Sequence record: MW883060 | Direction: 5' to 3' (one strand) | DNA length: 39,713 bases | Origin: Escherichia phage vB_EcoP_SYGE1 | Shown here: piece by piece, positions 29,022-38,762 of the stretch | Layout of the letters: each line of letters opens with the position of its first letter | How positions within the stretch are numbered: the stretch's first letter is position 1 | Translations under genes and position numbers: made by a program | The notes under the pieces: generated by a model | The model's input: only the letters and a program-made list of their open reading frames with translations | Databases searched by the model: none | What the model was told of the DNA's origin: nothing

Positions 29022-29470
29022 TATTTCTTTCCTCCTTTCCTTTTTAATCTATCAAAGGGGACCTTCTTCTTGGGTTCCTTTATCCACTCAGCAGGTATCA
29101 GTTTATCAGCGAACTTAATGCCATGCTTTTCGCAGAACTCTCCATAAGACGTTGGAGAACCTTTGTATAACTTAGTACGTGAGCTTGAGAAGACAATACG
29201 GATGTCTAACTCGGGGTGCTGCTCCCTAATTAATAAGTGCTTCTTTCTATCATCGCTTTCCCACAGACCCTTCGTCTCAACGAATATACCGTTGGGAAGT
29301 AAGAAGTCTGGGGTGTAAGTGTGACTGCTCGCCGGAATTACATAAGGCACTTTCCACTCTTCATACTCGAATTTAATACCTTTTGATTCCAACTGCTTTG
29401 AAACCTTGTCCTCTAGGCCAGAGCGAAACGCTCCAACCTTTCGGATTCCTTTAGCGCCGTAACCTGCCAT
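29021..29470 (-). CDS. Endonuclease I (Holliday junction resolvase) gp3
   Basis: 149 aa from ATG at 29468..29470 preceded by GGGAGGCGAC; MAGYGAKGIRKVGAFRSGLEDK... Confidence 0.9.
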   Translation of the reverse strand: MAGYGAKGIRKVGAFRSGLEDKVSKQLESKGIKFEYEEWKVPYVIPASSHTYTPDFLLPNGIFVETKGLWESDDRKKHLLIREQHPELDIRIVFSSSRTKLYKGSPTSYGEFCEKHGIKFADKLIPAEWIKEPKKKVPFDRLKRKGGKK

Positions 29471-29870
29471 GTCGCCTCCCTTTGCGTATATCACAAATAG
29501 TCTGTTGGGAGACACCATAGGTGCGAGCTAAGGATACATTGGACTCGCTGGACTCCATGATTGCCATTACGTCTTCGTCTGAAAGTTTATACCCCTTGTG
29601 TGAGCGACCCTTATTTACCATGTCAGCGGAGTTCTCTTTTGGAGTTCCTATGGATAGGTGTTCAGGGTTACAACATAATGGATTATCACAGGAGTGCAGG
29701 ACGGTAGAACCTTTAGGAGCATTAGACATTATGCGGTGGCAGTATACAACCTTTCCGGTATTACTGCACCACACCTGCCCGTACCCTTTACTGTTCGTAG
29801 CACCCTGCCACTCCCAACACCCAGAGGAAGTCACCTTGATTCGCTCAAGGATTTTCTCCCGCAGTTCCAC
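29451..29870 (-). CDS. gp2.8, HNH-like nuclease-fold protein with a C-terminal HTH-like segment
   Basis: 139 aa with GTG start; HSCDNPLCCNPEHL is an HNH-type motif; the C-terminus VSLARTYGVSQQTICDIRKGR is HTH-like. Confidence 0.7.
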   Translation of the reverse strand: MELREKILERIKVTSSGCWEWQGATNSKGYGQVWCSNTGKVVYCHRIMSNAPKGSTVLHSCDNPLCCNPEHLSIGTPKENSADMVNKGRSHKGYKLSDEDVMAIMESSESNVSLARTYGVSQQTICDIRKGRRHGRLRR

Positions 29871-30569
29871 TTAGAAATCCCCGTCTTCGTCTACTTCATC
29901 GGACTCTTCGTCGTCTTCGTCCCAGCTTTCTTCGTCGCGTGGTTTGCTCGCTTTGGCAGAACCAGAGGCAACATAGCCGTTCTCTTCGACTTCATCGGCC
30001 CAATCGTCTTCACCGCCACCAAAGGTAGCCAGTTCGACCAGCATCACGGATTCCAGTTGCAGCTTAACGCTTGCACCAACAGCGGTGTTCCACTTGTAAG
30101 GAACCAGAGAGTATTTGACTTTCAGTTTTGAGCCACCACCGATAATCGGAACGTCTTCCATCTTCTTACCTTTGGAGTCAACCACAACCAGATTGATGTG
30201 CTTGGTCTCTTTGGTCTTCTTGTCTTGGAAAGACGCGTAGCATTTGAACTTAAAGGTAGTCGTACCGTCACCATTATCGAAGAACGGCATGTCACCTTCA
30301 TACGGTTTCAGCGGTTTCTTACCACGAGCTACAGCAGGTGGATTAGCTTCGTATTCCTCAACGGCAGCAGCATAAGCCTCTTCGTGACACTTCACGATTT
30401 CATCGACCATGCGTTGGCAGCGTGGGTCTTTGTTGGGAGTAGTCAGGTCAACTTTGTAGACACCGCGAGGGTTCCCAAAGCCACGCTCCTCGTTACCGTA
30501 GTCCGGCTTGGAGAGGTAAGCGTAAGGTTCAGCAGTACCCAGCGCAGAGGTGAAAATCTTCTTAGCCAT
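29871..30569 (-). CDS. Single-stranded DNA-binding protein gp2.5
   Basis: 232 aa from ATG at 30567..30569; acidic C-terminal tail ...DEDDEESDEVDEDGDF; the track ORF begins at an upstream TTG. Confidence 0.95.
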   Translation of the reverse strand: MAKKIFTSALGTAEPYAYLSKPDYGNEERGFGNPRGVYKVDLTTPNKDPRCQRMVDEIVKCHEEAYAAAVEEYEANPPAVARGKKPLKPYEGDMPFFDNGDGTTTFKFKCYASFQDKKTKETKHINLVVVDSKGKKMEDVPIIGGGSKLKVKYSLVPYKWNTAVGASVKLQLESVMLVELATFGGGEDDWADEVEENGYVASGSAKASKPRDEESWDEDDEESDEVDEDGDF

Positions 30570-30613
30570 AATGTTAATCTCCTTTAGGTTTCGTTTGTTT
30601 CTCAAAGGGAGTC

Positions 30614-30636
30614 TTCCCTAATAGTGAGTCGTATTA
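30614..30636 (-). promoter_or_regulatory. Phage RNAP promoter phi2.5
   Basis: Minus strand reads TAATACGACTCACTATTAGGGAAGAC. Confidence 0.85.
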
Positions 30637-30828
30637 CTTCGGTGCAACACAAGGGCGCACACGAGTAACCTCAAAGCCAGCCGGAACGTATTGCCACTCG
30701 GCTAACTCCACAGCTTCGTCTAGGGTCTCCGCGTAGATTGGAACCTCAAAGGAATGCTCCGAGGACTCTACGGTAGCCCAGAACTTCTTATTGTCCACAC
30801 TCAGTGAGCCTGTATTTACGTTCGACAT
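30634..30828 (-). CDS. gp2 inhibitor of host RNA polymerase
   Basis: 64 aa from ATG at 30826..30828; [64 protein letters not shown]. Confidence 0.9.
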
Positions 30829-30941
30829 ATCAGTAACCTCTCGATAGCCATTGGTTGTAAAGTTCCATGTAGTGACCAGCGGATTTCTCGTCACCACGTT
30901 CTATACATTCAGTCCACATTCTGTGGCACCAGTCGGAAGGC

Positions 30942-31169
30942 TTAAGTATAGCGGTTCACCATAACACAGTCGTCAGAATATTCATACTCCTCTACCTTAA
31001 TAATTAGACTAGGTGTCTTCTTATAAGCAAATGGTAGGAGGTCACTATCACAATACTCACTGTGTCCTAACGAGAACATCAGCATACCCATGCGCAGCGC
31101 CTTGTATGCCCGATAGAACCTGTGCGCTCTACGCTTCACCGATGCGGCTTGAAGTTCTTCACGCGTCAT
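30942..31169 (-). CDS. gp1.8-like protein
   Basis: 75 aa from ATG at 31167..31169, overlapping the end of gene 1.7; assignment by position only. Confidence 0.5.
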   Translation of the reverse strand: MTREELQAASVKRRAHRFYRAYKALRMGMLMFSLGHSEYCDSDLLPFAYKKTPSLIIKVEEYEYSDDCVMVNRYT

Positions 31170-37825: not shown

Positions 37826-37840
37826 ATTCTCCAAATGTGA

Positions 37841-38038
37841 TTAATGGGTTGCTACGTAAAAGATGCCTACTTTGTTCGCCTTAAAGCGCCCGTTGTGTTC
37901 ACGTACCGTAAACCGTGGTAGGAATCCGTATTTAAAGTAACTTAGCGTTGCTTTGTGGACCTTTATACCCTTGCGGAAGTCTCTAAGGAACACGTATAGG
38001 ATTAGAGCGTAACCAGTGATGATAATTAGCGATAGCAC
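37841..38038 (-). CDS. gp0.6-like small hydrophobic protein
   Basis: 65-aa ORF with apparent GTG start overlapping the end of 0.5; assignment by position only. Confidence 0.35.
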   Translation of the reverse strand: MLSLIIITGYALILYVFLRDFRKGIKVHKATLSYFKYGFLPRFTVREHNGRFKANKVGIFYVATH

Positions 38039-38196
38039 TTTATTGCCTCCAGAGCTTCCTTACCGCGCCCCTCAGCGTCCAACTTAGCGAGTAGTGCATC
38101 ACGTTGCTTAAGGAACTTTGAGCGCTCCAACGCGGTGCTACGCCATCCCATCGCTACGAATACTGCAACGGTTGCCATAAAGATTCCAGTCGTCAT
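38026..38196 (-). CDS. gp0.5-like small membrane protein
   Basis: 56 aa from ATG at 38194..38196 preceded by GAGGATTAAACAC; MTTGIFMATVAVFVAMGW... has a hydrophobic N-terminus. Confidence 0.5.
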   Translation of the reverse strand: MTTGIFMATVAVFVAMGWRSTALERSKFLKQRDALLAKLDAEGRGKEALEAIKCYR

Positions 38197-38218
38197 GTGT
38201 TTAATCCTCATAGAATGA

Positions 38219-38262
38219 TAATCATGAAAGGCCACTCGCTTTGAGCGACCTTGAGTCTATCA
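38219..38262 (-). promoter_or_regulatory. Putative RNase III site R0.5
   Basis: tgaaaggccactcgctttgagcgaccttgagtc lies between 0.4 and 0.5. Confidence 0.45.
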
Positions 38263-38415
38263 CTCAGCAGATTCCAAAGCTATTGCCTTGTTGTTTTCGT
38301 ACAGTTCCTTAAGGTGTGCCATTGCGAGCGACCAATTAAACCCGCAGCGCACCATGTCACTATAGAACAGTACAGTTTGAGCGGTCAGACCGTATTGCGT
38401 GGTGCTGTTAGCCAT
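38260..38415 (-). CDS. gp0.4 (FtsZ inhibitor in T7), 51 aa
   Basis: ATG overlapping the ocr stop (TAATG); [51 protein letters not shown]. Confidence 0.7.
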   Translation of the reverse strand: MANSTTQYGLTAQTVLFYSDMVRCGFNWSLAMAHLKELYENNKAIALESAE

Positions 38416-38762
38416 TACTCTTCTTCCTCGTCTTCTACTTCCGCAAGATACTCGTTCAGTAAGTCCTCAGCGTCTGCCCAAAGGTCGCTAGTGAGTTGCT
38501 CATAGATGCGAGCCTGTAGAATGCGGGTTACGTCCTTGGTGTTCGGAATAAGACCAGAGTCCTCAAATTCAAAACCAATGCCATCGCTTGCCATTACACT
38601 AAAGATGTCATTATAGTAGTGAGGGACCGCATCATCGGCAGCCATATGAATAGCATCGTGCAGGTCGTCAATTCTACGGATGTCATCATAACGGATGTTT
38701 TCTTTCAGCATTTCGTAAGCGTGGTCGAAAACGTTGTTGTAAGTCATGTTAGACATAGCCAT
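38415..38762 (-). CDS. ocr: Ocr, DNA-mimic anti-restriction protein gp0.3
   Basis: 115 aa, highly acidic, [29 protein letters not shown]..., near identical to recalled T7 Ocr. Confidence 0.95.

Follow-up and report, generated by a model that had tools for sequence, protein, structure and literature searches.

Among the T7 proteins with counterparts in the genome considered here, Gp1.2 is described in structural detail: its N-terminus enters the active site of the dGTPase Dgt, where R3 stacks on the guanine (Klemm et al., PMC9478638); residues Y5, S6, G7, A10, and V65 touch Dgt monomer A and F12, K13, and Y28 touch monomer E (PMC9478638). T7 gp1.2 reportedly also triggers ApeA and PifA; thus, the protein is itself sensed by defenses. 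According to the BASEL phage reports, PifA of the F plasmid inhibits T7, Bas65, and Bas102, all of which carry a T7-type gp1.2, and does not inhibit Bas64, Bas103, and Bas104, with resistance following one gp1.2 clade (PMC8594841, PMC11990801). Here, we compare with these systems the host-takeover genes of Escherichia phage vB_EcoP_SYGE1 (sequence record MW883060), analyzed as one stretch of 39,713 nucleotides (nt) that we refer to as the window. An initial annotation, made from the letters and their open reading frames (ORFs), had proposed a full complement of T7-type anti-host genes. We are highly confident that the window instead encodes an ordinary T7-type host-takeover set in a mosaic Teseptimavirus, with allele swaps at gp1.2 and gp5.5 and with gp2.8 standing outside the set.

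With all 56 annotated T7 proteins used as tblastn queries against the window, the matches were collinear on the minus strand, from gp0.3 (38762) to gp19.5 (415). E-values of 1e-13 to 0, a wholly T7-like gene order, and 17 T7-type promoters, where 0.04 would be expected by chance, mean that fortuitous similarity is no concern. Since these promoters, like the collinear matches, lie on the minus strand only, the window reads as a complete, mosaic Teseptimavirus (T7-like) genome in reverse complement, with its genes on the minus strand. In the phage collection searched, the best matches to the early region are the BASEL phages JeanTinguely/Bas64, EmilieLinder/Bas103, and AnnaIndermaur/Bas104 (94-95% DNA identity over 93-95% of its length), and the best match to the late half reaches 92-94% identity. 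The collection holds no record of the same phage and none above ~95% identity, and T7 covers 88% of the early region at 91.8% identity; on these grounds, T7 or a laboratory derivative of it was rejected as the source of the window. A map of tile identities outlined a Bas-type backbone whose identity pattern changes abruptly at gp1.2, at gp5.5, in the 0.5/0.6 cassette, and at 1.7 and 2.8-3. T7-type tracts lie at 1.6-1.7 and 2.8-3, gp1.2 is of Berlinvirus type, and gp5.5 is of Bas103 type, a patchwork typical of ordinary Studiervirinae mosaicism.

The signals expected to time gene expression were located at the following positions:

38930..39214, minus strand: early promoters A1-A3 of host RNA polymerase, for expression of early genes 0.3 to 1.3
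32301..32344, minus strand: early terminator TE, a 95% match to T7 TE
32284-32302, minus strand: phi1.5-type T7 promoter, directly after TE

A3 matches its T7 counterpart at 50/50 positions and A2 at 92% over 37 nt; the match to A1 is partial, spanning only 18 nt (18/18). The C promoter is a 98% match to T7, and phi1.1A, phi1.3, and phi2.5 are identical to the T7 sequences. With these elements conserved, host RNA polymerase should express genes 0.3 to 1.3 first, reading from A1-A3 as far as TE, and the phage polymerase should then transcribe the class II genes. The early products would comprise Ocr, which blocks type I restriction-modification and bacteriophage exclusion (BREX), the FtsZ inhibitor gp0.4, gp0.7, the phage RNA polymerase, and gp1.2. 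Among the class II products, gp2 would block host RNA polymerase, gp4.5 would inhibit Lon, gp5.5 would bind H-NS, gp5.7 would block sigma-S RNA polymerase, and gp5.9 would block RecBCD. Gene order, strand, and the promoters and terminator are as in T7 for the nine genes of this program (0.3, 0.4, 0.7, 1.2, 2, 4.5, 5.5, 5.7, and 5.9), given here with their predicted functions and lengths in amino acids (aa):

38415..38762, minus strand: gp0.3 Ocr (115 aa), DNA-mimic inhibitor of type I restriction and BREX, by homology to T7 gp0.3
38260..38415, minus strand: gp0.4 (51 aa), homolog of the FtsZ/cell-division inhibitor, 45/51 residues identical to T7 (88%), PHROG 7202 (E 5e-33)
36740..37819, minus strand: gp0.7 (359 aa), Ser/Thr protein kinase and host-transcription shut-off protein, by T7 homology
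33435..33707, minus strand: gp1.2 (90 aa), dGTPase (Dgt) inhibitor, Berlinvirus-type allele, Pfam PF10922
30634..30828, minus strand: gp2 (64 aa), host RNA polymerase inhibitor, 63/64 identical to T7 (98%)
26246..26515, minus strand: gp4.5 (89 aa), Lon-protease/toxin-antitoxin inhibitor, 87/89 identical to T7 (98%), Pfam TA_inhibitor (E 1.3e-61)
22710..23012, minus strand: gp5.5 (100 aa), homolog of the H-NS-binding protein, rare allele, Pfam PF11247
22501..22710, minus strand: gp5.7 (69 aa), sigma-S RNA polymerase inhibitor, 69/69 identical to T7
22343..22501, minus strand: gp5.9 (52 aa), RecBCD inhibitor, 50/52 identical to T7 (96%), PHROG 9014 (E 1.4e-39)

Identities to T7 proteins were obtained by tblastn and global alignments, and families were assigned by Pfam and PHROG profile searches. 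All seven homologs named by the initial annotation (Ocr, gp0.4, gp0.7, gp1.2, gp2, gp5.5, and gp5.9) were recovered by homology searches, and the pairwise alignments to T7 orthologs that it had proposed as a check uphold the assignments, at identities ranging from ~40% (gp1.2) to 98% (gp2). Five of the seven, together with gp2.8, do fall within the interval 29451-38762 to which it had confined the set; gp5.5 and gp5.9 lie 6.4-7.1 kilobases below the lower bound.

Most members of the set are close to their T7 namesakes. Ocr is 86% identical to T7 gp0.3 (99/117 residues in a global alignment) and matches Pfam PF08684 (ocr) over the full profile length (193 bits against a cut-off of 25, E 1.3e-57). 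By composition only, it has 29 Asp/Glu and 7 Lys/Arg residues in 115 aa, compared with 34 and 6 in the 117 aa of T7 Ocr, a balance that fits the strongly acidic type predicted to mimic DNA phosphates. The gp0.7 protein is 88% identical to that of T7 from end to end (316/359 residues), in the kinase and the C-terminal shut-off regions alike, and matches PHROG 2828 (serine-threonine kinase) with an E-value of 5.5e-168. In gp2, Pfam PF16857 (RNA_pol_inhib) scores 95.6 bits against a cut-off of 27 (E 1.6e-27), and the C-terminal RVRPCVAPK is conserved with T7. PHROG 7202, the family of gp0.4, is one of unknown function. As a side observation, gp5.9 scores 24.4 bits with Pfam PF25708, 0.1 below the gathering cut-off of 24.5, despite its 96% identity to the founding T7 protein; automatic Pfam annotation would therefore miss it.

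The gp1.2 allele departs from this pattern. Only 37 of its residues are identical to T7 (~40%), and its identity of 37.5-43% to T7 and Bas102 compares with 97% to Bas64, 98% to Bas103, 81-84% to Kvp1, FE44, and Shigella phage A7, and 57% to T3. In identity comparisons, it groups with the Bas64/Berlinvirus/T3 alleles and not with those of T7, Bas65, and Bas102; it thus shares a clade with the Berlinvirus-, Kvp1-, and T3-type proteins but resides here in a Teseptimavirus backbone. Like gp5.5, it would be an allele swap gained by recombination. Family membership is not in question: Pfam T7-like_gp12 (PF10922) scores 46.2 bits against a cut-off of 22 and is present in 75 of 75 database homologs, and phmmer links the protein to Gp1.2 in the Protein Data Bank (PDB) entries 2mdp/7u65 at E ~1e-9. 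Its AlphaFold model, with a predicted local distance difference test score (pLDDT) of 80.5, superposes by Foldseek on 7u66_G with template modeling (TM) scores of 0.84/0.90 and a root mean square deviation (rmsd) of 2.0 Å over 89 columns. The protein is therefore modeled with the T7 Gp1.2 fold (helix, three-stranded sheet, helix), as in the Dgt-bound form.

Sequence conservation concentrates where T7 Gp1.2 meets Dgt. Eight of the ten contact positions are identical (G2, R3, Y5, S6, G7, A10, K13, and V65), F12 is replaced by Y, and the protein retains both the N-terminal plug MGRLYSGNLAA(Y)K and the DEDV motif. Across 27 gp1.2 homologs, a T7-type sequence among them, Y5, G7, N8, D67, and D69 occur without exception, and at least 90% share G2, R3, L9, E68, and V70. 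These identities indicate that the active-site plug is intact, with one monomer E contact lost, and the conserved N-terminus would still plug the Dgt active site. The central beta-sheet region is almost wholly unlike T7, and the protein carries 15 acidic and 18 basic residues versus 14 and 10 in T7. T3 gp1.2 is annotated as a dGTPase inhibitor in its record. We infer that inhibition of Dgt is most likely retained.

Placement of the allele in the clade of the PifA-resistant BASEL phages further suggests that gp1.2 probably escapes recognition by PifA-mediated abortive infection, and the phage is predicted to be PifA resistant. The initial annotation named gp1.2 and the micro-ORFs as the members most likely to differ functionally from T7. 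For gp1.2, this agrees with published reports, which already discuss a link between allele type and PifA sensitivity (PMC8594841, PMC11990801). The annotation overlooked gp5.5, which diverges from T7 just as far.

The gp5.5 protein is 44% identical to T7 and 98% to Bas103; those of Bas64 and Bas104 are other alleles (47-48%). Pfam Phage_T7_55 (PF11247) matches it over its full length with 71.7 bits (cut-off 25, E 5.7e-20), as does PHROG 1452 with an E-value of 2.6e-32. The family N-terminus (MAxTKKFKxSFDVTA) and C-terminus (SPATVREVF) are preserved, and the middle is replaced. This clade is small: in a set of 5.8 billion proteins, only ~10 clusters reach ≥63% identity, one of them including phage PHB19 (84%). 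A sequence search of the PDB with gp5.5 returned no solved structure, only spurious matches to repeat proteins.

A different history is suggested for gp2.8:

29451..29870, minus strand: gp2.8 (139 aa), HNH (His-Me finger) homing-endonuclease-like protein with a C-terminal three-helix helix-turn-helix (HTH), by T7 homology

It is 98% identical to T7 gp2.8 (136/139 residues), with a GTG start in both, and carries the motif HSCDNPLCCNPEHL. Pfam HNH_3 scores 26.6 bits (cut-off 24.8), and zf-His_Me_endon, at 25.9 bits, stays under its cut-off of 27. All 34 homologs share H58, C65, H70, and N79, and C60, D61, N62, and N67 reach at least 90% conservation. The AlphaFold model, built on this 34-sequence alignment, has a pLDDT of 89.8, with C-terminal helices at 97-105, 110-117, and 121-128 (pLDDT ~88-93). 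Its top PDB fold match is I-HmuI (1u3e_M, E 8.4e-4), followed by I-PpoI. Locally, the C-terminus matches HTH folds such as the N-terminal domain of AcrIIA15 (rmsd 1.7 Å, 37 columns, probability 0.91); in Pfam, it finds CENP-B_N only, below threshold (E 0.004). An HNH core followed by a C-terminal HTH is thus supported by the model, as the initial annotation had read from the motif and the C-terminal segment. Its inclusion of gp2.8 among the anti-host genes did not hold. The gene is absent from Bas64, Bas103, and Bas104, in which gene 2.5 joins gene 3 directly, and it sits in a tract of ~1 kilobase (~29960-28900) that runs from the end of gene 2.5 through gp2.8 and across most of gp3, with identities of 96-100% to T7 and 0-84% to the Bas phages, in a flanking backbone closer to the Bas phages than to T7. 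Since this is the pattern expected of homing with co-conversion of the flanks, the tract 28900-29960 looks like a co-conversion tract left by gp2.8 homing, and gp2.8 is best classified as a mobile, selfish HNH homing endonuclease that would have arrived with its flanks from a T7-like donor. Relatives of the protein include T7 gp7.7 (50% identity) and the HNH ORF in the gene 5 intron of the window (~28%). I-HmuI (1u3e) likewise has a helical DNA-binding domain C-terminal to its HNH_3/His-Me finger core; it differs in being intron encoded, whereas gp2.8 is freestanding between 2.5 and 3, and sequence identity is only 15%.

The set also falls short of the full T7 complement. T7 gp0.5, gp0.6A, and gp1.4, along with 3.8, 5.3, and 7.7, have no tblastn match in the window at E ≤ 0.01, and T7 DNA identity drops to 0-45% across 38363-37764. 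T7 gp0.5, gp0.6, and gp1.4 are thus absent or replaced; in turn, gp4.5 and gp5.7 are present and had gone unlisted. The absence of gene 1.4 also follows from the phi1.5-type promoter lying immediately after TE. In evolutionary terms, the 0.5/0.6 cassette would have been exchanged for a T3-type cassette and gene 1.4 lost, with a gp1.5 paralog and an ORF like K1F gp1.75 present in addition. T7 gp0.6 is reportedly an MreB inhibitor, a finding ascribed to Molshanski-Mor et al. in 2014. With the cassette exchanged, this inhibitor appears to have no homolog in the window. The small ORFs of the replaced and neighboring slots are as follows:

38026..38235, minus strand: small membrane ORF in the T7 0.5 position, maximal 69 aa, likely start ATG 38196 (56 aa)
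37841..38038, minus strand: 65-aa ORF in the T7 0.6 position, T3 gp0.6 homolog, PHROG 2385 (unknown-function family)
32180..32272, minus strand: gp1.5 micro-ORF (30 aa) with hydrophobic N-terminus and poly-Asp tail, 26/29 identical to T7 gp1.5, PHROG 12128 (E 6.9e-20)
32054..32155, minus strand: micro-ORF 1.5b (33 aa), gp1.5 paralog, absent from T7
30942..31169, minus strand: 75-aa ORF between genes 1.7 and 1.8, K1F gp1.75 homolog (91% identical)
30830..30919, minus strand: gp1.8-like micro-ORF (29 aa), its stop codon abutting the gp2 start

The likely start of the membrane ORF is preceded by a GAGGA Shine-Dalgarno sequence. This ORF belongs to the unknown-function family PHROG 25811, is 87-91% identical to ORFs of JB01, Bas64, Bas104, and Bas65 and ~40% to those of other Studiervirinae, and has no T7 match, so that it is not homologous to T7 gp0.5. 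The 65-aa ORF is 98-100% identical to its Bas64, Bas103, and Bas104 counterparts and 66% to T3 gp0.6. Its identification with T7 gp0.6 was rejected, as it matches T3 gp0.6 and has no T7 match; the two gp0.6 proteins are unrelated by sequence despite their common number. The first 23 nt of 1.5b equal those of gene 1.5, and both pair a hydrophobic N-terminus with a poly-Asp tail; 1.5b has its own Shine-Dalgarno sequence, without a promoter of its own. It is 94-97% identical to ORFs annotated in Bas64, Bas103, and Bas104, there as a 38-aa protein, and has no Pfam or PHROG match. The gp1.75-like ORF is 97-99% identical to its Bas64, Bas103, and Bas104 counterparts and occurs in 28 phage records, annotated as hypothetical in all of them; the maximal 86-aa ORF that contains it (30942-31202) likewise has no Pfam or PHROG match. 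The gp1.8-like micro-ORF matches residues 21-47 of T7 gp1.8 at 38% and equals the C-terminal part of Bas103_0022. Pfam offered no family for gp0.4, gp0.7, gp5.7, or the 69-, 65-, and 86-aa ORFs.

The differences from T7 include the gp1.2 and gp5.5 alleles, the absence of gp0.5, gp0.6, gp1.4, 3.8, 5.3, and 7.7, and the extra 1.5b and gp1.75-like ORFs. With Bas64 (MZ501081), Bas103 (PQ850602), and Bas104 (PQ850595), the window has in common the 0.5/0.6 cassette, 1.5b, the gp1.75-like ORF, and the HNH ORF-bearing intron of gene 5, along with the Berlinvirus-type gp1.2 seen in Bas64 and Bas103. These phages differ in lacking gp2.8 and in a gp3 only 85% identical, and the middle of gp1.7 is T7-like in the window; Bas64 and Bas104 carry extra homing endonucleases near the ligase gene that the window lacks.

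Alternative readings have been weighed against this account of an ordinary set with two swapped alleles. A gp1.2 this divergent might have changed target, no longer inhibiting Dgt and acting, e.g., on another deoxynucleoside triphosphatase or solely as a defense decoy. The replaced central sheet, the loss of Y28, the shift in net charge, and the sensing of T7 gp1.2 by ApeA and PifA would speak for such a change. We consider it very unlikely, given the retained plug and DEDV motif with their invariant residues, a predicted fold equal to that of Dgt-bound T7 Gp1.2, the annotation of the related T3 protein, and PF10922 in every homolog. A true anti-host role for gp2.8, for instance as a nuclease or a DNA-binding regulator directed at the host, is extremely improbable. 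Its retention at 98% identity to T7 could be read that way, as could a PhageMaP preprint that flags g2.8 among class II genes as possible hhe-defense triggers; the gene is nonetheless missing from the three closest backbone relatives, lies inside the T7-identical patch that homing with co-conversion would leave, matches I-HmuI in fold and domain order, and has its kin in gp7.7 and the intron HNH ORF.

It also seems unlikely that at least one accessory small ORF or the rare gp5.5 allele provides a distinct, undescribed counter-defense or host-takeover function that would set the phage meaningfully apart from T7. The accessory ORFs do occupy early and class II slots where T7 keeps host-directed genes, are 87-100% conserved in several phages, come with ribosome-binding sites, and match no Pfam family and either no PHROG or PHROGs of unknown function, and the gp5.5 clade is small. 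Nothing positive speaks for a function of these ORFs, those of 29-33 aa carry little statistical weight, and gp5.5 retains the conserved termini of its family; moreover, the same ORFs are found in phenotyped BASEL phages, to which the sections of the reports consulted attach no special defense phenotype on their account. For the specific candidates, namely, the membrane ORF at 38026-38235, the T3 gp0.6-like ORF, 1.5b, the gp1.75-like ORF, and the gp5.5 clade, we regard an undescribed counter-defense or host-takeover activity in at least one of them as distinctly unlikely. Were it true, cassette exchange in these slots would tune which defenses or hosts the lineage overcomes.

The ordinary T7-type reading, which we retain, has its own weak points. 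All mechanisms are carried over from T7 by homology, and H-NS binding by gp5.5 would be an extrapolation from T7, given its 44% identity and the lack of a structure found by sequence search. In gp1.2, no aromatic residue aligns with Y28, through which the T7 protein contacts Dgt monomer E by a cation-pi interaction. The BASEL authors describe PifA sensitivity as a trait not explained by the gp1.2 allele alone, with capsid gp10 and other factors contributing, and the gp10A of the window is only 89-92% identical to that of any compared phage. The gp0.7 start codon is ambiguous: GTG stands at the T7 ATG position (37819), with an in-frame ATG 6 nt upstream (37825) and a TTG at 37834. Finally, gp1.7 is frameshifted relative to T7 near its start, which reflects either a sequencing error in a homopolymer or a genuine change of the N-terminus.

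The functions assigned here would be textbook T7, and the divergent alleles and extra ORFs are already known from published, phenotyped phages, so the significance beyond correct annotation is small. Should the host or defense range of this lineage differ from that of T7, the exchangeable slots 0.5/0.6, 1.4-1.5, 1.75, and 5.5 are where to look.

Three further features were mapped:

33709..33837, minus strand: gp1.1 (42 aa), 79% identical to T7, Pfam Phage_1_1 (E 3e-13)
23035-25746, minus strand: DNA polymerase gene 5, split by an intron at ~23198-23797
23308-23703, minus strand: HNH_3 ORF in the gene 5 intron, 98% identical to the Bas64/103/104 intron ORF

Residues 1-653 of T7 gp5 map to 25746-23788 and residues 654-704 to 23187-23035, leaving 600 nt between. 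In a relaxed local search, this insert aligns with the entire Rfam group I intron model at 37.1 bits (gathering cut-off 50, E 1.1e-7); at gathering thresholds, Rfam found nothing in the whole window. With gp2.8 and the gene 5 intron endonuclease present and 3.8, 5.3, and 7.7 absent, the mobile-nuclease set is unlike both that of T7 and that of the Bas phages.

Other genes also show peculiarities. In gene 1.7, encoding a nucleotide kinase, the segment 31700-31753 (minus strand) contains A6 where T7 has A5, so that the T7-type ATG at 31753 opens an ORF of only 35 aa. The remainder forms a 193-aa ORF from ATG 31740, with poor Shine-Dalgarno spacing, and an internal Shine-Dalgarno sequence with ATG lies near 31628. 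The gp1.6 homolog (31753-32013, minus strand; 93% identical to T7) matches Pfam PF06726, "Bladder cancer-related protein BC10," with 76.8 bits (E 1.5e-21); this name seems unrelated to a phage protein and may reflect a problem of the Pfam entry. The tail fiber gp17 (3655-5607, minus strand) has 650 aa versus 553 in T7 and is only ~45% identical over the aligned part; given this divergence, the phage probably differs from T7 in receptor and host range. Lastly, the gp4.7 frame (25765-26301, minus strand) is extended upstream to 178 aa, compared with 135 aa in T7; comparably long forms, of 172 aa, are annotated in Bas103 and Bas104. Identity of gp4.7 amounts to 90% with T7 and 83-86% with the Bas phages.

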